Positions 1 to 56,794 of a stretch of 64,000 nucleotides of DNA are shown piece by piece (positions within the stretch are counted from its first letter, which is position 1; the number at the start of each line of letters is the position of its first letter). Made by a program: the position numbers and the translations under genes. The notes beneath the pieces were generated by a model that worked only from the letters and a program-made list of their open reading frames with translations, was not told the DNA's origin and ran no database searches. The stretch covers positions 13,114,485 to 13,178,484 of the forward strand of contig NC_134027.1 in the NCBI RefSeq assembly GCF_964204645.1, given 5' to 3'. The stretch comes from Tubulanus polymorphus. Taxonomy: Eukaryota; Animalia; Nemertea.

Positions 1-779
1 TATAGACATATTCAGTAGATACGCATGGTCAATTCCAATCAAAAATAAAACTGGTATAGAAGTGACAAATGCTTTTAAATCAATATTTAAAGAAGCTATT
101 CCAGATAAGATACAATTTGATGAAGGTAAGGAATTTTACAACAAACATTTTAAAAAACTATTATCTGATAACGATGTAGATTATTTTTCAACACACTCAG
201 ATAAAAAAGCATCTATTATAGAAAGATTTAATAAAAAATTGAAAACTAGAATGTGGAAATATTTTACTGCTAATGAAACATATAAATATATTGATGTGTT
301 AGATGATTTAGTGAAAGGTTATAATAATTCTAAACATAGTTCTATAAATATGAAACCTATACAAGCTAGAAAAGAAGATAATTCGGAAATAGTTTGGAAT
401 AATTTATATGGCGCATTTGTTACACATGATTTCGGTGAACCTAGATTCAAAATTGGACAACACGTAAGAATATCTAAATATAGAAAAACCTTTTATAAAA
501 AATTTTACAGAAGAAATATTTAAAATTAAAAAGATAATATTAACTAAACCATTTGTTTATAAATTGGAAGATTTAAAAGATGAAGAAATATTAGGTTATT
601 TCTATGAACAAGAATTATCACTTGTACCAAATCCAGATGAAATAGAATACAAAGTAGAAAAAGTATTGAAAACAAAAACTCTTAAAGGAAAAAAGTATTC
701 TTTAGTGAAATATAAAGGATATGATGATAAATTTAATGAATGGATTTTATCTAGTAAAATTAAAAGAATAAATGAATAA
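1..779 (+). pseudogene. RVE (retroviral-like) integrase with C-terminal chromodomain, 5'-truncated by the window and frameshifted near 490-520
   Basis: IDIFSRYAW, IQFDEGKEF and SIIERFN (DDE core); chromodomain YKVEKVL..VKYKGYDDKFNEWI. Collinear with 62258-63385 but split into ORFs 62-523 and 564-779. Confidence 0.9.
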
Positions 780-1383
780 AGATTTATTTATATTTGAACC
801 GCATAATATGTTAGTTACTGGAGTAACCAATTGTGGTAAAACACATTTCATATTAGACTTGTTAGAAACTATTTATAAGAATCATTTTGATAATATAATA
901 TCATTCTGTCCTACTTATGAAATGAATAAAACATATAATAGAGATATAGTTAAGATAAAAAAGTTTATTATATTAGATCCTAAAACAGTAAAAGAAAATT
1001 TAGATAATTGTATTAAAATAGCAATAGATATTTATAAAGGATCAAATACATTATTCATTATAGATGATTGCGCTAATCTACATGATTCAAAAGTGAGAGA
1101 AAGTGAGTTATGTTATTTAGCTTTCTCTGGGAGACATTTTGGGATAACAACATGGGTTTTAAATCAAAAATATAATTCAATTGTTAAAGACTTTAGGGAG
1201 AATATAAGATTTCTAGTTTTATTCTACAATAAAGATAGAAAATCCATGCAACAATCATTGGAAGAAAATCAAATTATACCTACTGAATTACATCATGAAT
1301 ATATGAATAAATTAAAGAATAATAAAGGTTCAAAATTATTACTGAGATTACAATTTCCATATGAATATAAATTTATAAAATAA
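772..1383 (+). CDS. A32/FtsK-like genome-packaging ATPase
   Basis: Walker A GVTNCGKT, Walker B FIIDD, GRH motif; intact 203 aa; homologous to 63386-63994. Confidence 0.92.
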   Translation: MNKDLFIFEPHNMLVTGVTNCGKTHFILDLLETIYKNHFDNIISFCPTYEMNKTYNRDIVKIKKFIILDPKTVKENLDNCIKIAIDIYKGSNTLFIIDDCANLHDSKVRESELCYLAFSGRHFGITTWVLNQKYNSIVKDFRENIRFLVLFYNKDRKSMQQSLEENQIIPTELHHEYMNKLKNNKGSKLLLRLQFPYEYKFIK

Positions 1384-1406
1384 CTATTTATATTTTGGAA
1401 TATTAT

Positions 1407-1745
1407 AGAAACTAATTTATATATCTATATACTAGACGTACGAGTAAGAAAGTAAGATTCTTACCAAGAAAGTAAGATTCTTAGATTCTTACGTACGTCT
1501 AGTATATAGATATATAAATTATTAAATGAATTATATAAAAATGAATAAATTATATGTTTTCTCTTAATAATAATAAAAATAGATTATATTATAACTATTT
1601 CTATACTTAGATTAATAATTTTATGTTTTTAATTTTTATGAAAACTATCATATATATCTATGTACTAGACGTACGAGTAAGGAAGTAAGATTTCTTGGAT
1701 TCTTACTCGTACGTCTAGTATATAGTTACATAAATTAGTTTTATA
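1407..1745. repeat. Twin palindromes: four alternating-orientation copies of a ~40-bp arm (ATATCTATATACTAGACGTACGAGTAAG)
   Basis: Arms at ~1413-1450 (+), ~1485-1521 (-), ~1641-1682 (+) and ~1700-1743 (-), between convergent genes. Confidence 0.9.
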
Positions 1746-1749
1746 ATAA

Positions 1750-2883
1750 TTATTCTAATTTTGTTTCTAATATATTTATAAAATCATCTCTGTTTATATC
1801 TAATTCACCAAAAGTCTTAGGTAGATTTATTAATTTCAATTGATCCATCTTAACATAATTATTAGTAGGTAAATTAGTTTTTTCTCTTAATTTTTCTAAG
1901 TATTCATCAAAATCATCATAATCAAAATCAAAATGATGTCCAAAATTATTTATCAGATAACTTAAATCTTAAATCTATTTTTCTAAAATATAATAATTTA
2001 TATACTTGTTTAGGATTATCTTCTGCATAAGCTAATAATTTATCAAATAACAACTTATAGAATATATAATATTGGTTAGTTTTAGGATTAAAATATTTGA
2101 TATATTTATTTGGGTTATTTAACAATGGTATCATACTCACCATTTTATAAACATTAATTAGATGTAACTTTGATTTATAATGAGTATTTTCATCAACAGG
2201 TTCAATTTTCTTATTACAATATTGGCACATTTTATTTCTTTCTATTTCTTTTCATGTTCTTCTAACTTCCTTTCATTTTCGATATGCTCTTGAGATTTTT
2301 TATGTTTAGAAAAATTACTTTTAGAAATATCTAAATCACTAATGTTACAATGTTTTTTAGAATCATCAATTGTTTCATTATCATTAGTTTCAATTGTATC
2401 AACATTATCTGTTATATTATCTATGGTATCATTTGTTTCAATTGTATTAACATTATCTATGATATTATCTATTATATTATTATCAGATATATTATTATCA
2501 TTATTATTCTTTTCTTTTTCTATATGTTTATTTGATTTCTTATGTGATGCCCAATTTTTATATGATATATATTTCTTACATACATCACAATATTTTTCAT
2601 TTGTCTTTTTGGTTTTGATATCAGGTTCAATCTTATCATTATTAGATGTAGTAGGTATTACATTATTAGATGTAGTAGGTATTACATTATTATCAATTAC
2701 ATTACTTAAATTATCAACAACACCACTTTCATTATTATCGATTTCTATTAGTTTAGTTATATAAATTTTGAAAATAGGATCAAATATCAAAGCTATATTA
2801 CAAGGTATTACATAATATAAACCATCATTATTTTCATGTGTATCGATGTATGGAATATGTTTATATACTTTACCTCCTTCCAT
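1750..2883 (-). pseudogene. Multi-C2H2 zinc-finger protein, frameshifted (ORFs 2242-2883 and 1946-2230 plus a tail to ~1750)
   Basis: CDVCKKYISYKNWASHKKSNKH, a degenerate second finger and CQYCNKKI..HYKSKLH; fragments join by small frameshifts; 24-bp tandem repeat (NNVIPTTS x2). Confidence 0.7.
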
Positions 2884-2915
2884 TTATTATATAAATTTTT
2901 ATTAAAGTTAAAATT

Positions 2916-4163
2916 TTAATACATAACACTATTCAATTGAGAATTTACAATATTTAATTGCGCGTCAGATATAATATAAATATGCATTTTAAAATTTAGG
3001 CTTCCTTTTTTCTTTGTCATGAATAATTGTATTCCATCTTTAGTGTTCTGTAGTTTTTTTCCAGAACCATGTAATGAATTATCCTCTGTTGTTCTAAAAT
3101 CTAACCATAATGCATATTTATTAGCGGTATAATAATCAATTTGATTAATATTACAATTTTCAGATGATTTCACTTTTTCATTCATAAAATGTTTTCTAAT
3201 TTCTGGCCATTGATCCATCATTCTCATTCCTTGACAAAATATTTTATTTGCTATTCCTTCGATAGTTATTTCTACTTTTGTTATTTCAGGATTATAATAC
3301 TTATCAACCTGTATTGCACCATTAGAATATGTTGCAATGGTAAAAAATATTAATATACCTTTAATAGATCTTCTTGGGAAGTTAATATTCTCATTAATTA
3401 TTTCATCATTTGCATTAATAGTTACAGTTTTAAATTTATCAATATAATCATATAATAATGAAAATCCTTGATTGTATTTAGTTTGAATTATACTTGCAAT
3501 ATTTTCATCAGTTACTGTATCATATTCTAAACATATATTCGATAATTTATAACCCATATCTTTAACAACGCTAGATAATACAATTTCATTTACAGGAGCA
3601 AATGTTATTTCGAATGTAACATCTTCTTGAATTGCATATTTATATAAAGGTGCATTGTTATTTATCAATTCAAAGTCTAATGGAATTTTATATTTGCTTC
3701 CATAAATCTTTTTTATCAAATTATCTGCGGTGCGAGTTACTATTGCGTCATTAGCTCCTGATCTTAATTCATTTTGGTTTTCTGATTGGATTCCTTGAAA
3801 TATCATATTATTTCTGTTTTCTTTAGTTAACCATAAATCTTTATATTGCATAAATAAATTATAATCATCTAATGAGAAAACTGTTTCTGGACCAATCTTT
3901 ATAGTTAATTTTTTAATCAAATATCTTCCAACATTATCAACAAATTGATTATCATTATTACCGATTACTTTTATATCGGCTGATAAATAAATACTATTTC
4001 GAACATAAAAAGTATTTTGTGTTAATCTAGGAATTCTAACATATAGAGTTTCATCGGGATTAATATTAGAAGGGTTATGAGTAATTATATGATGTGATCA
4101 TTCTGCTTTAATAGCATTAGATATTCTATGATTCTTAGAAGGATTGATATAACTCCCACTCAT
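2916..4163 (-). pseudogene. Double jelly-roll major capsid protein with a nonsense mutation at codon 22
   Basis: Highly similar to 60980-62227; ATG at 4163; AGA>TGA at 4100-4098. Confidence 0.85.
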
Positions 4164-4183
4164 TTATTTAACAAAAAAATTAA

Positions 4184-5515
4184 TTATTTATTTTTTGATA
4201 TCATATTCACTAACCCAAAAATAATTGCACTTACAACTGTAATTAAAAATAAAATAATATGTTCAGCAGCAAAGTTAATAATGTTTCCTGCAGATTTCAA
4301 TATAAAACCAACAATTGATGCAATAATTCCTGGTAAAGCTGCAGCAGATTTTTTAGATAGTTCCCATAAATATTTTGCTAATTTCTTTAAACCATCCTTA
4401 ACTTTATCTTGTATCGAATTATTATCATTCGGGGGTTTATCCGGTTTATTGGGAGTAGGAGTAGATTTCAGTGAATTTGATATAGCTAAACCAATTGTTG
4501 TAAATAACATAGTTACAGTTGTTAGAATTGAAAGAATTGTTATTCCTTCTAATTTAAATAATAACTTTATTCTATCTTTCAATGATATTTTAGAATCTGG
4601 TTTTATCAACAAATCTTTAAAAATAACTTATAATTTTTTAATATGATTAAGATCATATGATTTTAATAATGTATCTCTTTCTTTTTCCTGTAATTCTTTG
4701 TTATATTTTAAATCATCTATTTCTTTTTCTAAAGCTAACTTTCTGCTTTCATAATCAGCTTCCTCGATTAATTGAAAATTTTCATCTAATTCTAATTGTT
4801 TTACTTCTCCATTTGCATTAGCTAATTCTTTTTCTAACATGGTTATTTTAGAAAATCTCATCTTAATATTAGCAATTTCACCAGCTGATATTTGTACACC
4901 TTTAATTTCTCTACGTGCTTTTTCAGGAAAAGCTTCTAATTCATCATCAGTTAAATCAAGTATTCCTTTTTCTAGTAAAGATAGTATTCGATTTATTCCA
5001 GTTTCAGAACCAGATGTATCTGATATACTATTCATCTCTTCTTCTGAATCTCTTAATCTATCAATTTGTTTTTCTAATGTTTGTAATTGACTTGAATCAT
5101 TATCAATTTGTTGAGTGTCTCTTCTCGATGTTTCTGGTGTTGAAGATCTTAATCTATCTAATCGATCTCCATACTCTTCCATTTCTGGATCAACATCGGT
5201 AGGATTTGGATTTGGATTTTTAAATGGTGAATATTTGTTTATATCAATATTAGGAATTAGTTTCATAAATTCTTTTCTTTCTTTTCTAGTTGAAATTCTA
5301 CCACTTTCAGGAGCTTCTAAATATTTAATTAATTTTTCACGTAATTTGGAATTAATTCCATCATAATCATCATCATAATCATCATCATCATCTAAATTAG
5401 TATTATATTCTATTTTATTATCATCATTATCAATATTAGTTTCATTAAAATCAGGTTGTGGTTCATCACTTATACTAGGCTTATCGAAAGTATCCATTGG
5501 AATATCTTCTTCCAT
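4184..5515 (-). pseudogene. Coiled-coil protein with C-terminal transmembrane segments (homolog of 59339-60925), split near 4612-4630
   Basis: ORFs 4628-5515 and 4184-4612; C-terminal EGITILSILT...SAAALPG region nearly identical to C; N-terminus unrelated. Confidence 0.8.
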
Positions 5516-5530
5516 TTATATAATAAAAAA

Positions 5531-6854
5531 TTAAAATTTAAAATATAATATTCCTCCTATAACAATTCCTATACAAGTTAAAGCTAATTTAGCATTTTCA
5601 TGGGATTTATTATCATCATTTAGTTTAATTATATCATGTTGAATAATATCAGTTCTAATATTTTCTGATGTATTGTAATCTTTTATTTTAGAATCATCAT
5701 TTAATTTAATATTATTAGTTTTAGTTTCTGTTGATTGAATATGTTTTTTATTTTTTTCACCTTCCATTAATTTTGGAGCAGTGATAATCTTTTAATTTAT
5801 ATCATTCAATCCAAATGAATTATTTATTGTTGCAGTTTTAATTAGATTATTATAACCGATTATATTTCCCATCTTTAATACTAAATCATTAGAAATAATT
5901 AATAGATTAGGGCCTATACAATAATTTAATCTAATATGTGATTTATCTAAATAATTTTGATATCTAACAATGTTTTCTGGAATCGATCTATTTTTATCAT
6001 TATGAATTGAATCTTCAAATAATACTTTGAATTGTTTCTGTGCATCGAATGAAGTGTTATCATTTCCAATTATTGGGGATCTTGTTTCAACTTGCGCACC
6101 TGAAATACATATCAAATAAGTTCTAATAGATTGATTTATTCTTTGTATACCTGATTTTGTAAAACCTTCACTATTTTCTAAAATGAAATTAACCCAACCA
6201 TTATTATTTTGTTGTTGTATATTATTATAATATTTTGGTAATTCATTCCAATTTAGTGTTCTTATATCTGAATTTGTCATTATTTTTCCAAATTCTTTAG
6301 TATACAATATTCCTAATCCACCCATTGTTCCAATTTTTGCTCTAAAATCTTTATTTGAATTAATATTAAATTCATTACATATTTTATAAAACGTAGAAAA
6401 ATTAATATTATTATTCAATTTTTTAAATATTTTGAACCTGGTAAAGGACATTCTAATTCATCTAATATTAATTTTATTCGAAAATAAGTGTGAAATCTAA
6501 AAAGTGATAACATCAATGCAAACTTGGTTTATTTAAATGATCATTCCAACTAATTCCACATCCTGTTGTTGCGCAATAAACAGCAAAATTTAATTGGTTC
6601 TGCCAATACTTCATATTAGATTTTAATAACCATTGTTTTGCCTCATTTAAATTTTTAAAATTAATTGTATACACATGAAATATATTTTCCATCTTTACAT
6701 GAAAATTATTACTTTCAGTAACATAAATATATAAATCAATTAATGAATTTAAAACTTCATTTCTATATGTAATATCTTTATTAAAATCTATTGCTGGAAT
6801 ATTATATTTAATTGATTTATTATATTGGAAAGCTTTTGGAAAATTATCTGCCAT
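5531..6854 (-). pseudogene. Conserved Polinton protein (homolog of 57934-59322), three fragments
   Basis: YWQNQLNFAVYCATTGCGISW motif; collinear with the 462-aa ORF of C; frameshifts and a stop. Confidence 0.85.
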
Positions 6855-6870
6855 TTATATAACTAAAAAA

Positions 6871-7305
6871 TTAATAATTTATTAATTCTTTTAATAATTT
6901 ATCTTGTTCTTCAACTGTTATATGGCCACTTAAACTTATTATATAATCTAGTGTATTCTTTAATTTATTAATTTCTTTTATATTAGTTTTAATTTTTTCT
7001 TTATTACTTTTTATATTTAATTTTGAACTTATACCAGTTAAAACACTTGAACTTAATCCTAACACACCAGTTGATATAGCTAAAGGTGTTAATGGACTGA
7101 ATATTGCTAGAAATGTTATAACAGAACTAATTGTAACCGAACCACTGATAATAAGATAATATATAATTTTATTTTTTAAATATTTTTTCTTTTTAACTTT
7201 TAAGTCACTTTCAAATTCTAATATTTGTTTTTCTAAATATATTTTTTATTTAGTTTTATTTACATCATGAGGAATAATATCAATATTATCAACTTTATCC
7301 TCCAT
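6871..7305 (-). pseudogene. Small two-TM membrane protein (homolog of 57483-57917), frameshifted
   Basis: ATG at 7305 (MEDKVD..); C-terminal ORF 6871-7065 almost identical to C. Confidence 0.8.
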
Positions 7306-7325
7306 TTATTTAGCAAAAAAAATTA

Positions 7326-7748
7326 CTAATTAGTAAACTTATACGCTACAAATATAACAATAACAGTTTCACCTAAAATCCAAATTATTTCATATTTCTG
7401 TTGTTAATTACTTGGGGTATAATAATCTGATAATTTAGGTTTGTATAGATGTAATTTTTGTTTATTGGTTACCGCGTTATATAAACTCATTGCGTCATCA
7501 ACTGATTGAAAATCTCTATGTGAAATCTTCTGATCATATAATTCTTTATTGATGTAATCCATATAGTTTTGTCTGTTTTCTCTATATTCTTCCGCTGCTT
7601 TATTGTATTTCTCTAATGCTAAATTATGTCTTTTTTGTTCTGTTAATGAACCATTTTTATCAATATGTTTAAATAAATAACCACCACCAGTAAATGCTAA
7701 AGCGTTAACGATTACCGATCCTATAATAGTTATAACTGCAGAAGCCAT
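7326..7748 (-). pseudogene. Small membrane protein (homolog of 57041-57463) with premature stop at 7404
   Basis: MASAVITIIGSVIVNALAFTGGG..RHNLALEKY; GAA>TAA removes the C-terminal TM helix. Confidence 0.8.
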
Positions 7749-7823
7749 TTATTTAGTCAAATAATTATGTATTTATATTCCTCCCATATAAATACATAAT
7801 TATTTTACTAAATAATTATGTAT

Positions 7824-8045
7824 TTATATGGGAGGAATATATTTTTGTTTTTCTAAATAATCAATAGTTAAATTAGATAAAGTTACTGCTAATGTTAATT
7901 TTAAAATATCATTTATATCAAATCTATAAACATTAACACGTCCCATTTTGAATACTTTTTTTAATACCATTGAATAACCAACAGTTCCAACTGGTAGTAA
8001 TGCTCCATTATATAATCCAGTTATTATCCACTTATTATCACTCAT
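7824..8045 (-). CDS. 73-aa hydrophobic Polinton protein
   Basis: Three substitutions relative to 56795-57016. Confidence 0.8.
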   Translation of the reverse strand: MSDNKWIITGLYNGALLPVGTVGYSMVLKKVFKMGRVNVYRFDINDILKLTLAVTLSNLTIDYLEKQKYIPPI

Positions 8046-8387
8046 TTAGTTATCAAAAAAATTACTATCATCAAAATATTTAGTTATCTTAGTGATGATT
8101 AATTCAACATTTATTTCATTACTATTTTTATGATTATCATATATTTTGGATAATATGTTTTTAATATCATCAATAATTCCATTTTCATTTAATTCATAAT
8201 ATTCTAAAGGTGATTTAATTAAATCAATTACTTTTACTATATCATAATTTTCTTTATTAATCATTGTTGCATTATTAAATGATTTACTTTTTATACCAGT
8301 AATTACATCATTTAGTTTAATTCTCATTTCTTTACCATGTTTAAAATCAAACCCAAAACATATACTCGGTCCAACAGTTATATTCAT
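8046..8387 (-). CDS. 113-aa Polinton protein, function unknown
   Basis: Close homolog of 56453-56791. Confidence 0.8.
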   Translation of the reverse strand: MNITVGPSICFGFDFKHGKEMRIKLNDVITGIKSKSFNNATMINKENYDIVKVIDLIKSPLEYYELNENGIIDDIKNILSKIYDNHKNSNEINVELIITKITKYFDDSNFFDN

Positions 8388-8404
8388 TTATATAGTGAAA
8401 AAAA

Positions 8405-9167
8405 TTACTCTCTACATCTTATAACTAATTCATAAATTACAGGGAAATTATTTAAATCAAATAAGTGCCCATTATGATTTCTAATTTCTAATCTAAAATT
8501 ATTAAAACGAGGAATGCATGGTTTGAAATCACATTCTGTTAAATTATAATTTATTTGCGTTCCAAATTCTTTAACATTCTTCAATGGTAAAATGTTTAAT
8601 AAACCAGAATTACAAGTTATATCTTTAGTTGCTTCGAATGTTTTTGTAGGATCGATTAAATTGCAATAAATATAAAAATGTGTGTAAGGTATAAAGTTTG
8701 GTGTAACAGCATCAATATTTTTAAAAGATCTATCTGGAAGAATTCCTAACAGTTTAGCTATAGGTTTTTTTTACCATAAATTTATGTTTTTCACTATTAG
8801 ACAACCTTATCGTTATTATATCAGAACTATCACTTTTTAAAAATCTAATACTAAACCCAGAACTACTCCCTAATTTGTGACAGGCTTTTCTATTAATTTC
8901 TTGTGCTAATGTATCTAAATTATATAACCCCGGTTTTAAATATATATAGGACCATTCATTTTTACCTTTATCAAAAATTAAAAAGGCTCTATGTTCAATA
9001 GTTTTATTCGATATATTATAAAAAGAATTACATAAACTTATATTTACTAATTTTAAATCTACACAATTCTTGAATTCTCTATCTAATTGAACTAGTAAAT
9101 TATGAGATTTATAATTTGTAAGCCTTCTTGAATCAACAAATATTCTGTATTCTTTTAATTCTACCAT
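8405..9167 (-). pseudogene. Minor capsid (penton, single jelly-roll) protein, frameshifted near 8765
   Basis: Homolog of 55678-56436; frameshift in an A-run (VKKTYS vs VRKPLA). Confidence 0.75.
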
Positions 9168-9184
9168 TTATTTTACATATTTTC

Positions 9185-9538
9185 TTATTCGAAATCTATT
9201 TCATGGTGCTTTTTTTCATTCTTACCTTTGTATACGAAATAGAAATCTCCAGAACATAATTCTTCTAGATCTTCACTTGATAATCTATGAAATCTATCCG
9301 GTAAATATGTTCTGAATTTATATGTATTTCCTTTTAATCCTTCATATTCTAAGTGTATAACTAATTTATCTCCATATCTGTTAGTAACTGTAACAATATC
9401 TGTAATTAGATATTTCTTATGGATTATTAATTCTGCTAACTTCTTAAATTTATAATCTACTGATTTGACATTTGAAGTATCTTTTATTCTATCTAGAAAT
9501 AATTTGTTGTTCTCACTGTGTGTTTGTTTACTCTCCAT
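9185..9538 (-). CDS. 117-aa protein, possibly OB-fold/ssDNA-binding
   Basis: Intact ORF; KL.EL..Y.I..T.RYG..F..YLP.RF pattern; near-identical copy at 32770-33123; fold is an inference. Confidence 0.65.
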   Translation of the reverse strand: MESKQTHSENNKLFLDRIKDTSNVKSVDYKFKKLAELIIHKKYLITDIVTVTNRYGDKLVIHLEYEGLKGNTYKFRTYLPDRFHRLSSEDLEELCSGDFYFVYKGKNEKKHHEIDFE

Positions 9539-12500
9539 TTATAATACATATTTTCATTAAAATTTGATAAACACGTTAGAATTCTTTTCATTATCTCGTT
9601 CTCTTTTGTTTCTTCTCTTTTAAATTTTAAGTATTCATCTAAATTACAACCATAAGCAACTGTGTGAATTCCATCATCTAAAATATATCTTTTATCATCA
9701 AATGGGTTTAGACTTATCTTTTCAATTTCTTCAATAAACATTTCATGATCTTCAGATCTAAAACATCTCATCTTATGTTTTCTAACTTCTTCATTGAATA
9801 TACAATTGATGTAATCTTTGAAATGAATATTCTTTTCTACTACACTTTTGGTTATTCCTTTTAACTTTTTAGCTTCATGTTCTTTAGTTTTATATGAATA
9901 CATTTTAGATCTAATACCAATGAATTCAATCATTTCTTCGCCACCTAATTCATCCTTAAACTTCCCTGGAACTGTTTTATTATCATTGCTAAACAATTCA
10001 TGATCTTTAGGATAATTACTGAAATCAAAATGATGTTTTAATGTTTTTAAATCATCAGTTATGTTATCAGTTTTTATCTTTAATATGTAACTGTCGGTAT
10101 CAAAATATAATATTTCTATATGTTTTTCTCCAAAAAGTGGTTGTAATACATTATAATAGAATTCATACATTAGTAATTTTGATAATTCTAAAACTGAAGC
10201 GCCAACATAGATTGGTTTATTAAATTTCATTGATGTTCTTCTCATTTTAACTGCGGCTAAATTTTCATCAAATATTCTGTTACCTAAAAACTTAGGATAT
10301 GATTGTAAATGTCTTATTCTTTTACCATTACTAACTAACTCAATATCATTTCTATTTCTAATATTTTCACAAGTTTTTCCATAGAATGCATTATTCATTA
10401 ACTTGAAGAAATCTTTTTCGAAATCAGTTTTAGCTTCAGTTCTCTGTTTGGTGTTAAAATCTATATATTTTTCTAACCACTTAGATTGGCTAAATGAAAT
10501 ATATCTATGTACTTTTTTAGAATCATTCCTTGACTCAAATAAAACTTTAACATTCTATAATGTACTACATAATTATATTTATCTTCTTGAGTTACCATTA
10601 ACTTTTCTGTATGAATATGATTTTCGGGTTTAATTCTTTTTTGATAATTTGATAATTCTTCATGAGTTACGGTTTTATGTTCTGGATAGTATGCTAGATT
10701 TCTAGATTTAAATTTAATATGTTCAGGATATTCTAAATCTACGACAAAGAAGTAACTAGTATCTGAATCATCTGCAATATCTAGAATTCTTTTCTTCCAA
10801 TCAAATTTATCATTATTTTCATTCTGTAAAACTTCAGTTAATTCAAATACTCCATAAGGTTATGGTTCCATCATTGCCCAACCATACAAATTATTTGCAT
10901 CGATATATAATAACTTATATCCAGGGTTATCATTTACATTGAAATATCTATCGCCTAATACACCTGAAACTCCTCCTCCTATAGATTTTTCAAATAATAG
11001 TAATTGATCTATATTTGTTAACAAATCCATTTTTATATCTGTAAATTTTAATCCACAATCCCATGTTAATCCTGGACTTGAATAACAATGACAAGGATCA
11101 ATATTGAAATATTTTAGGTTTACATCTCTAAACCTTTCGAATATATCGGTTAATAATAATACATCTGATTTTAGATATAAATCTACTAATTGCCCATGAT
11201 TTTCTATTTTGAAATGATTCCAAATATTCAATGTTCTATTATATACTTCATCTTTAACATATTCATTTTTTAATTCATCATAAAATTGTTCTTTTAATAA
11301 TTCAGTTATGTTAAAATCATTATGATTTTTATAGAAAGAATATGGAATTGCTCCTTTATATCTCATTAATTGGAAATCATCATTATTTGGGTAGTGTTGT
11401 TTTAATATTTTCAATTCATCATCAACTTATGATTTTGATAAGTTATCTAATGAACTATTTAAAAATCTATATGAATCTATAAATCTTAAACACCCAAATT
11501 GGAATGATATAAAATTCTCAGATGTTTTAGCTAACATTCTAAATTTATAAGTTGGTATTTTATCTTTTGATCTATTTGAATTTAATCTTTCTATTTCATT
11601 ATTAATTTCTTCTATTTTATGGCATAACTGTTTGATGAATAAATGCGCATCATATCCAGATAGATTATGAAATATAACTGGTACAAAGTTAATTTTCTTA
11701 GCTTGCAAGTTACAATTCTCATGTGCAGCGCCTCTAAACTTTCCATTCAAATGATCATGGTCTCTTACTTTTTTATCTTTATAATTAAATATCTTTTCAC
11801 AATAATAACATTTATCTGCAAACGCAAATTCTTCTTTATCTTCTTCTGTCATTATAATTTCTATATTTTTATTTAACTTTTCATTAGATTTTATTTCATA
11901 TTTAATTAATAAGTCACAAAAATGATTGATAACATTTTCATTTCTATAATTATAATATTCACTATTAATTAGTTCTGGATAATCAGATTTAATATATAAC
12001 CCGAAAGCTGCAGCTGATTGGTGAATCTTTTTAATAGTACTTGTTTTTGGTGGTTCATCTGAAAAATCATTTTCATTAGAATTTAATTTCTTTCTTTTAT
12101 AATATATTTCTTTTCTATCTTGATCAGTTAATTCTTTATTTAATGATTCAAAATCTCCATATATTACAAATGGTACTTTATTTTTGTAATCATATTTTTT
12201 GAATTCTAATATTTTATCCTTTTCATTTGGTAAAACTAATTTACAATAATCATGATTTTCACATAATTGTTTATGATTTAATAATGTACTTTCATTACTG
12301 AATCTATGTAAACATTTTCTACAAAGATATATTTTATGGTGATCACTTTCTGATTTAAAAAATAAATCGATTTGTTTAATCCACATATAATGATTCTCAT
12401 AATATAGTATATCTATAACATCGTTTGAATCATAATCTTTTGATAGATATAAAGGTTCTAATGTATAATGTTTTATATTGTTACCTTTTGTATTTGGTAA

Positions 12501-13607
12501 TTTGATTAAATCAAATACATTTATCTTTATATTATTATCTCTTTCTATTTTTGGGATGTTTTTAATTATAACAGGATACTTATCTATCTTATAATTATTT
12601 TCAAATTGTTTATAATTTGTTAATCTATAAGTATGTTTATTATAATCTTCAACTGGGTGTAAACAACTTATTATAGCCCATAGAAAACATTTATCATCTT
12701 CATTTTGTACATTTATTACAGCATTAGTTTTAAATGGTAGTTTAATATAACTCGATGCTTCAATATCTGGTTCTTTATAATATGATACATTATTTTCATC
12801 GATTGGTTTTGATTTAGTTAACTTATTATATTTTGTGTTATAAACATGTTAAGTCATAAATATTATTTCATCAAATATTAAACCAGATCCTTCAAAATAT
12901 TTCTCTTCTATTTTAGTTTTTACTTCATTATAACATTTATCTAATTTATCATCTATATGTTGTTTATATATAATATGTTGTGAATGAGAATTGATATTAT
13001 ATATTGGTTTATCTTCAGATTTTATAAACTTTACTTTAACTGATATACTAATTTTAGGATATTCAACATCAGTTATTATTTTTACTATTTCTTTCATATT
13101 TTCTAAATGTTTTTTATTTTCTTCTAATGTTTTTCCTTTATGAAATTTAAACTCGATAGCTGCTGGACCAATATCACTTTTAAATGCTTCGGTTATCTCT
13201 ATATCTTTTTTATTATCTAATGAATTAATATAATATCTTACATCTTCCATGTATGGTCTTTTATTGTTTAATTTATTTTTTATGCTTTTAATTGTCTTCT
13301 GTTTCTTATCATTATCTTTATCAAAATAATCTTCACCTAAAATATCATTATTCTTATTTCTAATATGACTTTTAGATTTTAAATGTTCATTATAATATCT
13401 TTTATCACTGAATGATTGATTACATGTATCGCATTTATATATTTCTTTTTCATTCTTTAATTCATCTAATTTAGTTTCTAATATATCATCTTTATATTCT
13501 AGTTTCAATTTATTCTCTAAATGTGTTTTAGTTTTATTGTGTCTTGCTTTTTGGGATTTATCTATATTGATATTACATGTTGGATAGTAGTACTTATTTG
13601 CTTCCAT
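9493..13607 (-). pseudogene. Protein-primed DNA polymerase B (intein-less allele), multiple frameshifts
   Basis: Fragments 12849-13607, 11427-12386, 10860-11414 and 9493-10398: Exo I YGDFES, EndoVII RDHDH..GAAHENCN, motif A YIDANNLYG, motif B KLMNNAFYGK, uninterrupted motif C YFDTDSY. Confidence 0.93.
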
Positions 13608-13812
13608 TTTAATACTAAATTTTTTATTAAAATTGATTTTAGAAGTTCAATGATTCATATATGCATTATTTCAATCACACTTTACTAACACTTTTAATGT
13701 TTAAAAATCTAACTCACACAAATATGAATATTGAAATAATGTTGTAAATATATACTTTTATATTGAATAATCTGTCAATTTAAATGTTATTCATATATAT
13801 GATTATTTTAAG

Positions 13813-14230
13813 AGTAATAGGGGTAATGGCCTTTCAGGTTAAAGGTTGAATGGTCGAGTTCATTAAAAACAAATATTAAAAGTAATTTAAAACTATAATA
13901 TATTTTCATAACCATGTGTATTTCAGTTGAATAATAGAATAATTATTATTATCAAAATATATTTGATTATATGAATTTGTGTATTGTAAATGAATCAATT
14001 GGTCGCGGAGCGGAGCGGGAGCGAAGTGGAGCGACCAATTGATTTAATACAATATGCATTTAAAATTTAAATTATTGATATCTTAGAATAAATATTTAGT
14101 TATAATATAAAATGCACTATTATGCACAATTATGAAAATATATTATAGTTTTAAATTACTTTTAATGTTTTGTTTTTTAATGAGCTCGACCGTTCGACCT
14201 TTGGCCTCAAAGCCCATTACCCCTATTACT
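13813..14230. repeat. Terminal 418-bp imperfect palindrome of element A
   Basis: AGTAATAGGGGTAATGG.. at 13813 is inverted at 14230 (~100-bp arms); central perfect 14-bp stem AATCAATTGGTCGC/GCGACCAATTGATT around a GGAGC-rich loop. Confidence 0.9.
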
Positions 14231-14826: not shown

Positions 14827-17029
14827 ATGGATAAAAACCGTCAGCAAAAACGCTTGTCATACCAGCGCACGTATATGATAACTGCCTGTAGGATTGCTGT
14901 TGAGGCAGGACTAGGTTATGAAAGTTCTATGGATCAGGGAGAGATGGAGAGGGATGAATTTATAAATGGAGGTGGTAATGAATCGGAACTAGATGAGCAT
15001 GGTGATAAAGCACCTGGTGAGCAAAGTTTTTCATGCGATGCATGATGATGTTGATCTCCCTGTGCCAGCTGCTTGTGATTTTGACCACGGAATGCCTATT
15101 TGTCACGATGGTGACCATGACCCATCATCAAGTGATGGTGACAATGACCCATCGTCATGTGATAGTAGCTCTTCTGAGGATGCCCAGGAGGATAATGTTG
15201 ATCTATGTCTAGAACTTGGAAACTGGGTTAACAAATACAATGTCAAACATAATGCTGTTGACAATCTGCTGAAAATCTTGCAACAATATCACGACAACCT
15301 GCCAAGTTCTGCAAGAACATTACTAAAAACAGTTCATGCTGTGGATTCCCTTGAAAGATCAGGAATGCACTACATCTACTTGGGTTTGAGCGCACAACTT
15401 CTTATTTGTTATAATAGGCTACCTCAAGTAGATCAAAACACTGTCGATAGCTTTGTTATTTCTTTCAATATCGATGGGCTGCCTCTTTTTAAGTTCAAAA
15501 ACCTCACTGTGGCCAACACTTTGTGCGATTACAAATTTAGGAAAAAGCATAGTATTTAATGTTACCCTGCCATGTGGACCAGCAAAGCCATCAAATCTCA
15601 AGTTTTTGGATGATATGATTCATGATCTGAGACATCTGCTAGCTCATGGCCTTCAAGTTAATGATAAGCATATAGAAATAACAATCAAGTGTGTGGTATG
15701 TGATATGCCTGCCAAAATTTTTGTTAAGTCTGTAGCTACACTGGCTATTTTGGATGTGATAGATGTAAGCAAGAAGGGGAATGGCATGGCCGAATGACTT
15801 TTCCAAGAGTTGATTATTTACGCTTGCGCACAGATGATTCATTTCGTTATCAAACACAACCGCAACATCACAAGGGCCACACTCCTTTTGTAAATTTACC
15901 AATATAGAAATAACAATCAAGTGTGTGGTATGTGATATGCCCGCCAAAGTTTTTGTTAAGTGTGTGCGTAGCTACGCTGGCTATTTTGTAAGCGAGAAGG
16001 GGAATGGCATGGCCGAATGACTTTTCCAAGAGTTGATAATTTACGCTTGCGCACAGATGATTCATTTCGTTATCAAACACAACCGCAACATCACAAGGGC
16101 CACACTCCTTTTGTAAATTTACCAATTGATATGATAACATGTTTTCCTATAGATTACATGCACCAAGTTTGTTTGGGAGTCACTAAACGCATGCTATTGA
16201 CTTGGACGAATCGGCCTCGTAATGTGAAAATTTCTGCCCAACATGCAAGCATAATTAGTGATCGTATGACTGATTTGCGACCTTCAATTACTACAGATAT
16301 CTTACAAAGGAAGCCTCGCGGTCCGTCTCATTTAAAGCATTGGAAAGCTTCAGAATACAGACAGTTCCTTCTGTACACACGATCTCTTGTATTAAAGGAT
16401 ATATTACGCGAGGAAATATATGAACATTTTCTCTGTTTTTGTGTTGCAATGCGCATATTGGTATCGCCAGTGCTGTCCAGGGAATTTGTAGATTATGCTG
16501 AACAACTTTTAATTCATTTTGTCACTTGCTGCCATGACATCTATGGTGTTGAAATTATGACATACAATGTCCATTCGATGCTACATCTAGCTGATGATGT
16601 TCGAATAAATGGGAATTTGGATTCCCATAGTGCTTTCTGTTTCGAAAACTATTTGCAGGAATTTAAAAAAATGGTTCGTTCAGCCAACAAATTGTTAAGA
16701 GACTAAGCGAAAGAAAAAACATGAAAATTGACGTAGATAGGAGGGAAAGAATGCCAAAATGTAATGACTGCTTCTTATTAGGTGAAGAATGTATTGAGGT
16801 GCTAGACAGACATCCAGACAATGGAAATATGCGTTGTACGATATATGAGAATCCCGATTATCTCTTCAATAGACCCTGCGACTCGCGCCTTGTCCACATC
16901 TACAAAGTTAACCGGAGGAGAACATTTGTGCGTAATGTTTCAAGGCACGAACTTGTGTCTATGGCATTAAAACTGTCCATTCCCGACAGCCATGAGCTTG
17001 TGTTTGTTGCTATTCTTCATGATACATAG
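14827..17029 (+). pseudogene. CACTA/EnSpm transposase, frameshifted, with an internal ~230-bp tandem duplication (15670-16123)
   Basis: FNIDGLPLF, VCDMPAK, LRTDDSF, FPIDYMHQVCLGV, WKASEYRQFLLY, YNVHSMLHLADDV and SAFCFENYL are typical animal EnSpm transposase blocks. Confidence 0.85.
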
Positions 17030-26369: not shown

Positions 26370-27751
<1,382 letters not shown>

Positions 27752-28144
27752 CTTATCGCTGAAGAATAAATGTTTCATTGTGTATCAATTTATTCTTTGT
27801 CTCTTCGACTTACACTGATTGGATTGGAGAACAAAGCCTCAGACTATTAGAGAAAAGAGAAATAATTCAGGACATATTGATAATTCCAGATCTCAAATTA
27901 TAATTGTTTATTTTCTTACAGGCGATATTTGACTAGGCCACCAGATAAAAAATGTAACAACAAAATTTCAAAACCTTACAGGCGATATTTGCCTACAGAT
28001 AAAAAATGTAACAAAAAACTGAACCTCATATTGAGGTTAAAATTTTATATATACGTATATAAAACCCTCTCGATTAAATATACTCCCCACAGCATAGGTA
28101 CCCGGCAGTAAACATGAAAATTATTTCACTCCTGACTGCATAAA

Positions 28145-29720
28145 TCAAAATTTATCCAGGATTTTTTTGAATACCTCCAATTTGGCCTTTTCAATGCCAA
28201 GAAGTTCCTTTTCGATTTTAACTAGCTCATCGTGTCTAGTTTTATTTTGTTCATCCTGCTTTTGAATGAGTTCAAAAACTTTTTGGTTTCGAGGTGTTAG
28301 CCTCTGCCTTTTGGTAGGCTGGGTATCGTCACCTCTATTAATATCAGTAACACCATCCTCACTTGAGCAGATATTTGCACTATTGTGGCTACAACTGTAA
28401 GATGAAATAACAATTTCAGGAGAAACATTTGGCTTATCAGATAAATATTCATCCAACTCATCATAATATGGGCAAGTTTTAGGAGAATTTCCTGTTTTAT
28501 TATTTTCGGTCTTGGTTTTTCTGTATCTGAGAGTTACATTATTCCATTTGGTTTTTATCTGCTGCCATGAAAAAGAATATCCAAGTTTCTGCAATTCCTT
28601 GGAGAGCTTTTCCCAAACAGTCCTTTTCTTGATTCGCGGATCCGAAAATTCCCTGGCATGTTTTTTGTGCAGCTGTATGATATGAATAACTGCCTCCCCG
28701 GCATTGCAGTATTATATGTAGCACCAATGGCAGATATTTCTGTTTCCGTTTCTGATGACTCAGTGTTTTCTGATCTTTGGTGGAGCTTCTGTTGCAACAG
28801 ATGCAGCTGAAGAGAGAAGCAATGTTAGAAATTAAAATCTAGTAAGACTTTGAACAATGTAGCTGGGTGATGGGTGTTTATTTTGGGAATGATGAGAGTA
28901 AGTTAACTAGATTTACATATAGAGCAAGACTAGCTGGTGGAATTGAAAAATAACAATAATTTTTCTATACCAAGAATTAAGAAAATTTGTTATTTCCCGT
29001 CCCACAAAAAGATTAAAAAAATTGAGAATTGGAATTCCAGAAAGTATATCACATCCCTCCCTCAAAGAAAATCAGACTTACCAAGTTCACATTGAGCGTC
29101 TCTCTCTGATTCCACTACCGTTTTCTTCAATTCTTCGATAGTCTCTGTATCTAAATGCAAATATAAGCTTAAAAACAAAATGTATGGTCGACAAATTTCT
29201 TTAAAAGAATCAATCCACTGTCCCTACCTAATGTTTATACAAATGTTTGACATTGATTTGGCCAGGGTTGAATTGTTTACACTTACCATTATCTTGAACT
29301 TTGCTCCATGTTGGCAAATCAACCACAACACTGACAATTCGATCACCAAAATCTAATGATAATGGTCTCCACCAACCATTTTCCTGCCTACAAATATAAT
29401 AAAGCCATTTTTTATGAACGTAAACTGTTTACGAAAAGACAAGTGACTGCTCACTTGTACATCAGATGTGATGAAGCGTGTTTAGGCCTACCACGCACGC
29501 ACGCATGTGATAGTATAATGTGTGTGTGGTGACGTGATGGCCAAGTGAAGAATGAAGGAGAAAGTAGGACGAAGCACTGCATACATTGTTTTGCTAATTA
29601 ATTATCAATACACTGATATATGTATTATACATCTCAACAGATCTAGCTATTGAATATCACGCGAAAGTATAGAATAATACGATTATTTTAGTAAACTTAC
29701 CGCGCACAGCTTTCCATGTC
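28145..29720 (-). pseudogene. Harbinger Myb/SANT (trihelix) DNA-binding gene, multi-exon, frameshifted
   Basis: WQQIKTKWNNVTLRYRK..CPYYDELD; small AG/GT-bounded exons upstream; homolog of 47569-48162. The 5' limit is approximate. Confidence 0.75.
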
Positions 29721-32594: not shown

Positions 32595-32714
32595 AGTAAT
32601 AGGGTCGAGTGAGTAAAAATGAAAAATAAATTCTCGCACACTCGAATTTATTTTTCATTTTTTACTCACTCGCCCTCTCAACCTTTAATCTAGAACAACA
32701 CATTCCCTATTACT
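32595..32714. repeat. 120-bp terminal hairpin of element B
   Basis: AGTAATAGGG..CCCTATTACT enclosing the stem GAGTGAGTAAAAATGAAAAATAAATTC / GAATTTATTTTTCATTTTTTACTCACTC. Confidence 0.88.
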
Positions 32715-32769
32715 CTTAAAATATTAATCTAATAACTTCTAAAATCAATTTTAAAAATTTGTTATTAAA

Positions 32770-33123
32770 ATGGAGAGTAAACAAGTACACAGTGAGAACA
32801 ACAAATCATTTCTAGATAGAATTAAAGATATCACAAATGCTAAATCTGTAGATTATAAATTTAAGTAGTTGACAGAATTAACAATTCATAAGAAATATCT
32901 AATTACAAATATTGATACAGTTACTAACAAATATGGAGATAAATTAGTTATCTACTTAGAATATGAGGGATTAAAAGGAAATAAATATAAATTCAGAACA
33001 TATTTACCAGATAGATTTCATAGATTATCAAGTGAAGATCTAGAAGAATTATGTTCTGGCGATTTCTATTTCATATTCAAAGGTAAGAATGAAAAAGGAC
33101 ACCATGAAATAGATTTCGAATAA
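32770..33123 (+). pseudogene. Copy of the 117-aa protein with premature TAG at 32866
   Basis: MESKQVHSENNK.. homologous to 9185-9538. Confidence 0.8.
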
Positions 33124-33137
33124 AATATGTAAAATAA

Positions 33138-33896
33138 ATGGTAGAATTAAAAGAATACAGAATATTTGTTGATTCAAGAAGACTGACAAATTATAAATCA
33201 CATAATTTACTAGTACAATTAGATAGAGAATTTAAGAATTGTGTTGATTTAAAATTAGTAAATGTAAGTTTATGTAACTCTTTTTATAATATATCGGATA
33301 AATCTATTGAACATAGAGTCTTTTTAATTCATGACAGAAATAAGAATAGATGGTTTCATCTTTATCTAAAACCAGGATTATATAGTTTAGAAACATTAGC
33401 TCAAGAAATTAATAAAAGAGCACGCTCAAAAATGGGTGCATCTGCTGGATTTGGATTAAGACTTATTAAAAGTGATAGCTCTGATAAAGTAAGAATAAAA
33501 TTAGGCAATGAAGATCAACATCAATTTCTAGTTAAAAAACCTTTAGCTAAAATTTTAGGAATTAACCCAGATATAAGGATACGTAATGCTGATGCTACAC
33601 CAAACTTAAAACCTTTTACACACTTTTAAATTTATTGCAATTTAATTGACCCTACAAAGACATTTGAAGCAACTAAAGATACAATTTGTAATTCTGGTTT
33701 ATTGAATATTTTACCATTGAAGAATGTTAAAGAATTTGGAACACAGATAAATTATAATTTAGCTGAGTGTGATTTTAAACCATGCATTCCTCAATTTAAT
33801 AATTTTAGATTAGAAATTAGAAATCACAATGGATATTTAATTGATTAGAATAACTTTCCTGTAATTTATGAATTAGTTATAAGAAGTAAAGAGTAA
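33138..33896 (+). pseudogene. Minor capsid (penton) protein with premature stop at 33627
   Basis: Homologous to 55678-56436 over the whole length. Confidence 0.75.
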
Positions 33897-33913
33897 TTTT
33901 TTTGATATACAAA

Positions 33914-34086
33914 TATGAATATAACTGTTGGACCGAGTATATGTTTTGGGTTTGATTTTAAACATGGTAAAGAAATGAGAATTAAACTAAATGATGAAAT
34001 TACTGATATTAAACGTTAATCATTTAACAGTGCATCAATGATTAATAAAGAAAATTATAATACAGAAAAAGTAATTGATTTAATTA
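33914..34086 (+). pseudogene. 5' half of the 112-aa Polinton gene, truncated at the chimera junction
   Basis: MNITVGPSICFGFDFKHGKEMRIKLN.. ending at KVIDLI. Confidence 0.8.
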
Positions 34087-36424
34087 GTGTGTTTTATAAA
34101 ATGAATAAGGAATTGCACCTTTATATCTCAATAATTTAAAATCTTGTTCATTTGGATAATAATATCGAGTTATTATAAAATCATTATCAACTAAACTTTT
34201 TGATAAATTATCTAATGAACTTGCTAGAAATCTATAAGAATCTAAAAATCTAATGCAACCAAATTGAAATGAAATATAATTTTCAGATGTCTTAGCTAAT
34301 AGTTTAAAATCATATTTCCTTACATTTACACCATTCATAGCATTATATTCTTCTATTTCTTGATTAATTGCGCCCAATTTTCCCGATAATTGTTTTATAA
34401 ATAGATGGGTATCATAGCCTGATAAATTATGAAATGATATTGGTACGAAATTAACTTTCTTAGCTTGTAAATTGCAATCTTCATGAGCAGCTCCACGATA
34501 TTTTGAATATAAATGATCATGATCTCTAGCTTTTTTATCAAATGAATAAAAACGTTTTTCACAATAACAACAATGAGTTGCATAATTAAAATCAATTTCA
34601 TCTTCTTTTGTCATAACTATTCTTTTATTTTTGTTTAATAATTTTGCAAAATCACTTTCTAATTCAATTATTTTGTTACAAAAATTATTAACTACATCTT
34701 CACCTTTAAAAGAAATATATTGACTTTCATATAATTCGGGATAATTTGATTTGATGTAAATTCCATAAGCAGCAGCTCTTTGATGAACTTTTTTAATTGG
34801 ATTTATAATTGGTGGGTCTTGTGTTGTGTCTTCATTTAATTCATTTCCTTTATCCATTGATTTTAATAATTGCTTTTTGTTATATATTTCTTTTCTATCT
34901 TGATCGGTTAATTCTTTATTCAACGATTCAAAATCCCCATAAATTACAAATGGAACAATATTAAATTTATGATTAGTAAATTTCAATTTATAATCTTTTT
35001 CTGTTGGCATTATTAATTTACAAAAATCTTTATTATCACATAATTCTTTATGTTTTAGTAACGCATTCTCAGTTCTAAATTTAGATAAACATTTTCTACA
35101 TTAAATTTTATTATGGTGATCACTTTCTGTTCTAAAGAATAAATCAATTTGTTTTAACCACATATAATGTTCATTTTCATCTTTTTTGTAATATAACAAA
35201 TCTATAGCATTTTCATCATCATAATATTCTGTTAAATATAAAGCTTCCAATGTATAATCTTTAATATTTTCACCTTTTGTCTTTGGTAATTGCATTAATT
35301 CGAATAGATTTATTTTTAAATTATTAACTTTTTCTATTTTAGAAATCATTTTTATAGTTACTGGATATTGATCAATTTTATATAATGTTTCATATTTCCG
35401 GTAATTTGTTATTCTAAAACTATGTGTAATATCTTCTGTTGGATGTAAGCAACTAATAATTGCCCACAGAAAACATTTATTATCTTCATTTTGAACATTA
35501 ATTACTGCTTTTGTTGTAAATGGTAATTTAATATAAGATGATCCTTTAATATCCTCCTTTTCTGTTGTAAAGTTTGAATCATTTTTAAACATTTTATTAC
35601 TTTTTGATGTTTTATTTCTTTATGTATTATAAACATTTAAATCTAAAAATATAATTTCATTCAATGTTAAGCCAGAACTCTCAAAATATCTTTCTTCAAT
35701 ATGACGTTTAAATTCATTAAATATTTTTTCTAACTTCTCTTTTATTTGTGTTTTTGAAATTATTTCTTCAGAGAGTGTTTGAATATTATAATCCATTTTA
35801 TCTTCTGACTTTAAAAAACTTACTTTCCCAGAGATACTAATTTTTGGATATTCAACATCTGTTATCAAATCTAGTATTTTTTCTATTATTTCATTAAATT
35901 TACTATAATCTTCTATTGTTGTACCTTTAAAAAATCTAAATATAATAGCTGCAGGACCAATTTTACTACGTAATGTTTCTAATATTTCAATTGTATCTTT
36001 TATTTCTAGTGAATCAATATAATTTCTAACATTTTCCATCTAAGGTTTATTTGAAATGGATTTAGTTTTTGAAGTCGGTTTTTTTACTTTTTGAGGTTTA
36101 TCATCGAAATAATATTTTCCTAAAACATTATTACTCAAATTTTGATGGTGTTTTTGTGATTCGAGATGTCTATTATAATTTCTTTTTGTTATAAATTCAT
36201 CACAAACTTCACATTTTATTTCATCCACATTCATATCATCTAATCGTTCTTTTCTTTCATTTGTATTATCTAGTGTTTCAAAATCTATTACATTTTTTAT
36301 ATGATTTGCAGTTTTTTCATGTCGTGATTTTTGGGATTTAACGATGTATTTTTTTACAATATTGGCAAAAATATTGATTTTTATTAACATTATTATTTTC
36401 TGGCTGGTGTTCATTCTCCCCCAT
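34087..36424 (-). pseudogene. 5' half of C-type pPolB (zinc fingers to exonuclease), truncated before the polymerase motifs
   Basis: Near-identical to 49248-51583, with small indels and frameshifts. Confidence 0.92.
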
Positions 36425-37689
36425 TTATTAGGAAAAAAAATTACTTGTGGTGATGAGTTGTGTCTCGATCGCTCGACCTCTGGTATGAAACCCTCATTTC
36501 CCAATTACTGACTCGTTTAATTCTGAGAGTCTAGAGTTCCAGTTAATCCACATTAAAAAACATATCCACATGGTGCAGTGCCTAGCCTTCATCTACACTA
36601 AAGCCAAGCCTGTGTATGGGAAAATGTTGTTCGACTCTCATAGGCGAGACAAATCGATGCATGAATGCAGATGGTACTCTCCAGCAAGTTGAGAAAGTAA
36701 ACCAAGTTTTGACCTCTACCCTTTGAGACTCCTCCCTGTAGAAAATGTAGAAATATGAAACCCAATCGAAGCTATGCTAAGTACAATGACAGTTGAACCT
36801 TTATTGACGAATTTCAATGACACCAAAAATAAAAACGAAATTATCAAATTTCGATGCTGGCACTTATTATGGGATGTCAGTTTCAGCCTAACTGTACTTT
36901 CATTCAACTACTTCTTGTATGAAACGTGGAAATGAGAGGTTGCGAGGGATCACCAAACAATAAGAAAAACTATTGAGAATTAGAATTACTGTAGTTAAGA
37001 ATTTATTCAAATGAAGTGATAACTTCATTGTTAGCTCATACGGGTACAGGCAAATAAAACGATAACAACAATTTATATCATGATGCACAGACAAATGAAA
37101 TGTAAATAAATGATGACAAATATTATTCATTTAATTTTCCATTTTGGGGAAGCATGGTGATAGTTTTTGGAACTGATGTAGTATCATGTTATACAGTGTG
37201 TCCCGAACAATTGTTGTTCCTCCTGATTCAACTGAAGATTCCGGCTCTTGTCAAGGAAATGAGGTACTCCATCAATCGATCAAAAGTTGAGCTCAGACCA
37301 CTACCCCAAAATCTTCTTTATCCTATAAAGTAGAAATAAGGAATTCGAGTGTTTAGTTCATATATAAGCGCGTAAATTCAGGGGAAATCCTGCTTATGGA
37401 ATAGACCAGTAACTTAGCGACGCATTGAAGTGGTTTTTCCCCCACATACCCAACCTAACTTGAAATAATCGAACCTTTTATGCCATTGCGAGTACAGCCG
37501 CGCTGAATGCCCCACCGTGTTTGGTACCCATACTCCGAGGGAAAGAGGTCCAAAAAATGTCTTTTTTCATCACCATTCTGCCTCTCAAGACCAAATGGAT
37601 TTCATACATATGGCCTATAATTTTTTTAATTATTGTGCATCAGGGATGTACTGTCCTCAGTTGCCAAGCACCGAGAACAGGGCATCACT

Positions 37690-40834: not shown

Positions 40835-41186
40835 CTAGGGACATCAACAATGAAGGGCGGACTGATTTCGGTAATTGCCAAGCTTTGTTAAATTTCCACG
40901 TTGAAGCTGGGGATCATGTCTTGGAGGGACACTTTAAAAATGGCCCTAGCAACGCAACGTATAGGTCAAAGACTATACAAAACGATCATCGATTGCGCCA
41001 AGACGGTGATTCAAGAAAAAATCGTTAGTGAAATAAAGGCATCAAAGTTCTTTGGTTTAACTGCCGACGAGGCAAGTGACAGTGCGAACTTGGAACAGTT
41101 TCCTATGGTCATTCGTTTCGATGATGCAAACTGTGACGTAAGAGAGGAATTACTGCAGATGTTTGACGTTAGGGGAAATACATCTG
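40835..41186 (+). pseudogene. hAT transposase fragment (DUF4371, PRKRIR/ZMYM1-like)
   Basis: GNCQALLNF..GDHVL..NATYRSKTIQN and IVSEIKASKFFGLTADEASDSANLEQ..VIRF; cut by a Harbinger insertion. Confidence 0.8.
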
Positions 41187-55609: not shown

Positions 55610-55677
55610 TTATTAAGGAAAAATTTTATTAAAATTAATTTTTAGTGATGAGCGGTAATTTTTTTATGTTATAAATA

Positions 55678-56791: not shown

Positions 56792-56794
56792 TAA

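Follow-up and report, generated by a model that had tools for sequence, protein, structure and literature searches.

The window analysed here, a stretch of 64,000 nucleotides of the Tubulanus polymorphus genome, consists of eukaryote-like DNA (about 35-40% GC) in which three AT-rich pieces of Polinton type (21-25% GC), designated A, B and C, are embedded. Their main features are the following.

1-14230: element A, Polinton-type, open at the left window edge, with ATPase, part of an integrase and a capsid-like gene; ends in an imperfect palindrome
9493-13607, minus strand: protein-primed DNA polymerase B gene of element A, broken, without intein
10098-10099, minus strand: empty intein insertion point of element A, between D and T of YFD|TDS in polymerase motif C
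10099-10158, minus strand: tract directly upstream of the empty site, 59 of 60 nt identical to C; possible co-conversion tract
32595-36509: element B, an internally deleted 3.9-kb piece with a polymerase fragment (34088-36512 in the alignment) 94% identical to C
49163-64000, plus strand: element C, Polinton-type, open at the right window edge, with polymerase, capsid-like gene, integrase and ATPase
49248-54314, plus strand: protein-primed DNA polymerase B precursor of element C, open, 1688 aa
52794-53858, plus strand: 355-aa intein in the C polymerase, with Ser1, Thr83-x-x-His86, two LAGLIDADG motifs with Asp150 and Asp262, Lys-Asn end and Thr at +1
60980-62227: capsid-like gene of element C
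62258-63385: integrase of element C, rve with chromodomain (Pfam rve above cut-off)
63386-63994: A32-like ATPase of element C (Pox_A32 above cut-off)

Judged by its predicted genes, element C bears the marks of Polintons/Mavericks, namely protein-primed PolB, retroviral-type integrase and A32-like ATPase. The polymerase profile DNA_pol_B_2 scored under cut-off in a fragment of A and above it in the close relatives P0046, P0049 and P0178. The frame 60980-62227 has no Pfam or PHROG match; it scored 0.97 against Atlas clusters in which 10-24% carry capsid families, with a recognition value of 1852, below the 2300 mark. No adenovirus-type cysteine protease was matched among the 40 proteins scanned, elements A and C running off the window. 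Element ends start with AGTAAT at 14230, 32595, 36509 and 49163, A and C each having one end in the window, and the two ends of B display no 6-bp target duplication.

The three pieces share parts in an irregular manner. In DNA (2869-13403 compared with 49485-62269), A and C are 87-89% identical in structural genes and 74-80% in the polymerase, a pattern resembling a module swap. Element B combines an A-like end and A-like small genes with a C-like polymerase fragment and a C-like end. The end of A (13813-14230) is a 418-bp imperfect palindrome, the left end of B (32595-32714) a 120-bp one, and the same 10-nt word bounds both. Downstream of the polymerase, A carries a 117-aa gene (9185-9538) common to B; at that place C has a zinc-finger gene of 432 aa on the opposite strand (54311-55609). 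In A (11430-12386), B (34087-35010) and many relatives, the N-terminal part of the polymerase encloses an endonuclease-VII-like zinc domain (PF02945). Transposon remnants on the host side (15972-16706, 27197-28711, 40892-41260 and 45299-48162) comprise Harbinger-type DDE_Tnp_4 next to a Myb/SANT gene, further Myb/SANT frames, DUF4218 and DUF4371. Together with MADF, also present in the flanks, they are compatible with an animal host. One Myb/SANT frame of the host side yielded no homologue. A long TA microsatellite is found around 26510-26660.

Empty and filled site in polymerase motif C

On the minus strand of element A, motif C of the polymerase reads YFD|TDS without interruption, the junction being 10099|10098 within EILYFDTDSYILKIKT. 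In element C, 1065 nt are inserted at the same D|T. Both junctions can be read directly, so that the uninterrupted site does fix the intein boundaries exactly, as the first-pass annotation had claimed. Its estimate of about 43 kb between the two sites was also accurate: the spacing is 42,696 bp, on opposite strands. The +1 codon was correctly reported to be ACC in A and ACT in C, but it is not the lone difference, since the first 60 nt past the site contain 12 A/C differences. Counted upstream and downstream of the site, mismatches amount to 0+1 within 15 nt, 0+2 within 18 nt and 0+6 within 30 nt.

The 22-nt junction occurs once in the window (chance expectation 0). For the 24-nt junction, the second-best match in the window carries 7 mismatches, and further targets of the intein within the window were rejected on this ground. 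Element B was likewise rejected as a second empty allele; its polymerase stops at the position corresponding to 51583 of C, before the intein site. An assembly artefact as source of the empty/filled pair was rejected because sequencing reads cover both junctions.

As judged from sequence and structure prediction, the insert is a complete class 1 intein with a LAGLIDADG endonuclease, for which splicing and cleavage are predicted. Thr83 and His86 are invariant across a 34-row alignment, and the penultimate residue is Lys, not His; the Lys-Asn ending is frequent among relatives. Asp150 and Asp262 are presumably the catalytic residues of the endonuclease. Both LAGLIDADG motifs are present and a mini-intein reading was rejected. 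With Pfam, LAGLIDADG_3 was recognized above cut-off and Intein_splicing below it. The AlphaFold model (pLDDT 89, pTM 0.90) has its best fold matches in the TliVMA intein-endonuclease (E 2.5e-17), PI-PkoII, PI-PfuI, PI-SceI and I-DmoI. Position at D|T of the motif-C D-T-D-S, together with kinship to inteins at that site, identifies the insert by sequence as a pol-c intein allele.

Element A and copies in sequencing reads

Is the empty site of A an allele of the polymerase that carries the intein in C? The polymerase gene of A is broken by stops at 12851, 11429 and 10862 and by a one-base frameshift near 10516; three further apparent stops near 13310 were rejected as alignment slips in the divergent N-terminus. 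Identity of A to C is 74% (DNA) and 64% (protein) in the N-extein, and 80% and 79%, respectively, in the C-extein. The polymerase core of A is 72% identical to C and 82-85% identical to the intein-less proteins P0047, P0048, P0050 and P0182. Element A groups with five intein-less rows at 100/99 support, and forcing A and C into one clade gave p-AU 0.036. The two are thus not "the same polymerase", as had been assumed in the first-pass annotation.

Four of ten listed sequencing runs were examined, representing at most three samples from two studies; only X5 was taken as raw reads, about 12% of which were used. Most X5 reads are 90-99% like the window, so they probably come from an individual other than the one that supplied it. 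At the positions where A is broken, 573 of 575 X5 reads differ from A at 10862 and 486 of 496 at 11428, and extra bases appear at the frameshift (10512) in 287 of 515; the stop at 12851 lies outside the stretch covered by this comparison. Because reads that agree with A at these two stops are rare, the breaks are private to this copy and are not a property of its lineage. Element A is a dead copy of a lineage sister to that of C, never invaded by the intein.

Among other relatives, P0061 is a close Polinton-type polymerase, 62% identical to both C and A, which bears the source label Sulfurimonas sp., probably a binning contaminant. Viral contigs contained no relative of the C-terminal frame of A and no exact match to the 60-nt upstream tract; one 38% relative of the C N-extein was found there.

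When X5 reads were placed on C, 21 of them (16 different starts) skip precisely the 1065 nt. Another 6 do so but continue into a changed 3' flank, and 61 depart at 52793. On A, 78 reads depart at 10099 with a loose part resembling the start of the intein. Since A and C share the tract next to the site, these junction reads may be A-type on C and C-type on A, so that neither an empty C-type nor a filled A-type allele follows from them. An A-type 3' flank joined to the intein was absent among the six best X5 loose ends (at least 53 reads each). Mean depth in X5 is 230 over the 5' half of the intein, 249 over the upstream flank of C and 442 around the A site. By the intein 5' half, about 92% of the C-type depth is filled, and filled copies make up about one third of all copies in X5. 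Filled and empty forms are both multicopy in one sample of a matching organism. The coexistence of donor-form and empty-form sites, proposed in the first-pass annotation, is thereby borne out, except that at 72% identity they cannot be regarded as alleles of one polymerase.

In X5 there are about two empty copies for each filled one, and the intein has therefore not swept. This surplus bears on the idea that the endonuclease of C is active on chromosomes, where it would cut integrated empty copies like A, have them converted by ectopic repair and break host chromosomes widely. The frame of C is open, filled and empty forms share a genome, and the A site departs from the C flanks by 1 mismatch in 30 nt, which is inside the 14-40 bp given as homing-site length (PMC3315327). 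Nevertheless, A is still empty after collecting three stops and a frameshift, breaks missing from nearly all X5 reads, and the predominance of empty copies is evidence against integrated ones being cut efficiently. We regard widespread cutting of chromosomes as improbable.

Distribution of the intein and probable signs of homing

The polymerase set comprised 139 rows (one of 140 was dropped as too short), and omission of 28 distant intein-less rows left 111 in the main tree. Of these cores, 13 carry the intein, which requires 6 changes, at least 5 of them forced by strong branches. A single clade of intein-bearing polymerases was rejected (p-AU 1.4e-43; constraint tests were run on 42 of the 139 rows). 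When the last 15 residues before the site were omitted, 9 changes were required and filled proteins mixed among empty ones. Judged from sequences, such patchiness by itself would fit repeated gain or repeated loss alike.

The 20 Polinton inteins group together as a single clade (SH-aLRT 100). It is nested in a set of 34 YGD|TD inteins from PolB of giant-virus type, drawn from viral and metagenome contigs with partial inteins retained. The best full-length matches to the Polinton inteins are 42% identical and occur in giant-virus bins. Three groups of Polinton inteins match three deep polymerase groups, in what is a quick tree with long-branch warnings in the root region. One nested clade with matching groups suggests a single old capture followed by moves among close relatives, and the agreement with deep polymerase groups indicates that homing or jumps were short-range. 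Mapping onto the extein tree, suggested in the first-pass annotation, therefore gave a divided answer: the distribution is patchy and a single clade is rejected, and yet the intein tree follows the three deep polymerase groups. This congruence counts against homing, as plain inheritance with many losses would give it too.

Closely related alleles are more informative. In the set around P0049, alleles with the intein (1537 aa) and without it (about 1190 aa) share 95-99% identity upstream. Compared with P0049, each of the eight empty alleles examined shows 8-9 differences in the 20 residues that surround the site, versus 14-56 per 885-1171 residues elsewhere (Fisher 1e-5 to 1e-10), and the six other filled alleles show none in these 20. 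A lineage 65-76% identical overall matches the flank of P0049 at 15-16 of 20 residues, compared with 11-12 of 20 for its own empty alleles, as co-conversion from another lineage would give. The empty alleles of this set fall into three or four site types. Of 12 further close pairs within the clade of the intein, two (P0050/P0182 and P0079/P0074) have a clear excess of differences at the site, as has one of 10 control pairs outside that clade; that such pairs are few counts against homing.

A comparable trace may exist in the window itself. The tract upstream of the site, with 48 consecutive identities between A and C, is the best of 64 windows, and the 16 codons that precede the site are identical (p=0.005 by permutation). 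Runs of 18, 18 and 16 codons free of synonymous change occur elsewhere in A/C, and 4 of 249 runs reach 16, the site run included; given these equally long runs, the tract may reflect ordinary recombination. Within residues 1162-1579 of C, no C-specific residue sets C apart from the A group. The first 10 codons past the site contain 6 silent A/C differences (p=0.04). At the level of sequence, this fits an exchange of the C flank along with the intein from a donor of the A group.

We also weighed a single entry of the intein, its inheritance with Polinton lineages and many precise losses, in which case A and C would represent an empty and a filled lineage in one host and the shared tract ordinary recombination. 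Congruence of intein and polymerase trees at depth supports this, as do the further long identical A/C runs and the mosaic nature of the elements, whose structural genes (87-89% between A and C) are closer than their polymerases (74-80%). Moreover, about 92% of the C-type depth includes the intein 5' half and the A type is mostly empty by appearance. What inheritance with loss does not explain is why filled and empty alleles of 95-99% identity differ just at the site, and why filled and empty alleles mix once the flank is omitted from the tree. Nor does it account for restriction of catalytic-motif variation to the intein's clade, or for retention of both endonuclease motifs along with a lean of variable places to third codon positions. 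In X5, 12 of 18 variable intein places (from 40 listed of 610) are at third positions (p=0.004), which fits purifying selection on the intein frame. We consider this explanation unlikely, although less so than cutting of chromosomes.

Homing of the C intein between Polinton copies that are close relatives and inhabit one host, with the A site as the empty form in a sister lineage, is the reading that we favour and judge fairly probable. A pol-c intein would have been captured once, long ago, from PolB of giant-virus type. It would splice out of the polymerase precursor, and the freed LAGLIDADG endonuclease would cut related Polintons at empty motif-C sites; a filled copy would then serve as repair template, whereby the intein is transferred and short flanks are co-converted. 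Most events presumably hit copies that replicate or are expressed together, not silent integrated ones, since integrated empty copies are the majority and A decayed uninvaded. The first-pass proposal of homing between dispersed copies of a multicopy element thus stands at the level of the family, where coexisting forms, a patchy tree and differences clustered at the site agree with it. This support does not extend to the particular pair of C as donor and A as recipient, A being a dead sister-lineage copy that acquired four breaks uninvaded.

The catalytic DTDS motif is kept without exception by the 51 proteins that fall outside the clade of the intein, but by 33 of the 74 empty ones inside it. 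The changed motifs of these 74 proteins are 23 DCDS, 9 DTDA, 7 DTDG and 2 others, counted over related proteins many of which probably derive from few hosts, so that a Fisher test exaggerates the contrast; on the tree they correspond to 12 changes to DCDS and 6 to DTDA. Empty alleles with a changed site (DCDS, DTDA, DTDG or silent changes) may be the ones that survive, and it is likely that the intein drives empty elements to change the catalytic motif of their polymerase. The broadest form of this reading, in which a homing intein of giant-virus origin resides in Polintons of an animal nuclear genome, homes between dispersed copies and forces repeated escape of DTDS in an arms race, is offered tentatively, as a possibility somewhat short of even. 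As an observation in its own right, the 23 DCDS proteins (among P0062-P0111) replace the Thr of the catalytic D-T-D by Cys.

Relation to known inteins and Polinton inserts

The closest described counterpart is the pol-c intein of Mimivirus PolB (PMC549080), inserted at the same point of motif C, YGD|TDS there and YFD|TDS here. The two inteins share Ser start, Asn end, Thr at +1, TxxH and LAGLIDADG domain, and are of similar length (351 aa in Mimivirus, 355 aa in C). Unlike in giant-virus PolB, the intein here sits in a protein-primed polymerase, encoded by a multicopy Polinton that integrates into a nuclear genome, so that filled and empty alleles come to lie at many loci of one genome. Metazoan genomes are stated to lack inteins (PMC5784728, PMC8529194), and within eukaryotic viruses those sources list them for large DNA viruses.

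Nuclease domains inside Polinton pPolB are known from HNH/VSR inserts (10.1101/2023.08.22.554363, PMC11071308), and endonuclease inserts of this kind were suggested to result from intein invasions (PMC11071308). These accounts, as far as consulted, describe no splicing motifs for the HNH/VSR inserts, whereas the C insert combines a complete Hint domain and LAGLIDADG with exact empty alleles. GIY-YIG and HNH genes also occur in Polinton-like viruses (PMC12220804). We found no published description of a Hint/LAGLIDADG intein in a Polinton polymerase; the words "LAGLIDADG" and "homing" each have 0 occurrences in the main text of 10.1101/2023.08.22.554363, and supplements, the intein tables of PMC5784728, alignments of the Polinton papers and Repbase or subscription reports could contain one.

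Invasion-resistant alleles and co-conversion of flanking residues were reported for Haloferax MCM inteins (PMC10643990). The modelled C intein shares its fold with the archaeal and fungal homing inteins PI-SceI, PI-PfuI, PI-PkoII and TliVMA. Those inteins home between alleles of a single-copy cellular gene, whereas homing here would take place between dispersed virus-like elements. Intron homing by I-PpoI occurs in multicopy rDNA. KolobokP transposons of animal genomes carry an I-PpoI-like endonuclease (PMC9587614), a homing-type nuclease on a multicopy nuclear element, as in the present case; theirs is a His-Me finger nuclease, in that account without an intein and without an empty/filled pair at the active site of a polymerase.

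A complete pol-c intein in Polinton polymerases would, if confirmed, imply gene flow from giant viruses to Polintons at the polymerase active site. Filled and empty alleles in one genome would make homing, co-conversion and resistance countable over many copies, and the intein might serve as a marker for Polinton lineages active in the same nucleus. The empty site defines the predicted target sequence of the endonuclease.

In X5, mean depth over the 3' half of the intein (window 53315-53920) is 124 at 90% likeness, about half of the value of the 5' half, which suggests that roughly every second intein copy lacks its second endonuclease half or carries a diverged version of it. All four runs examined contain a joint that skips 53502-53851 inside the intein. 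P0002 and P0187-P0200 belong to a cluster of 55 short calls on long contigs, mostly the intein alone or pieces of it, and these intein-only calls likely stem from decayed Polinton copies.
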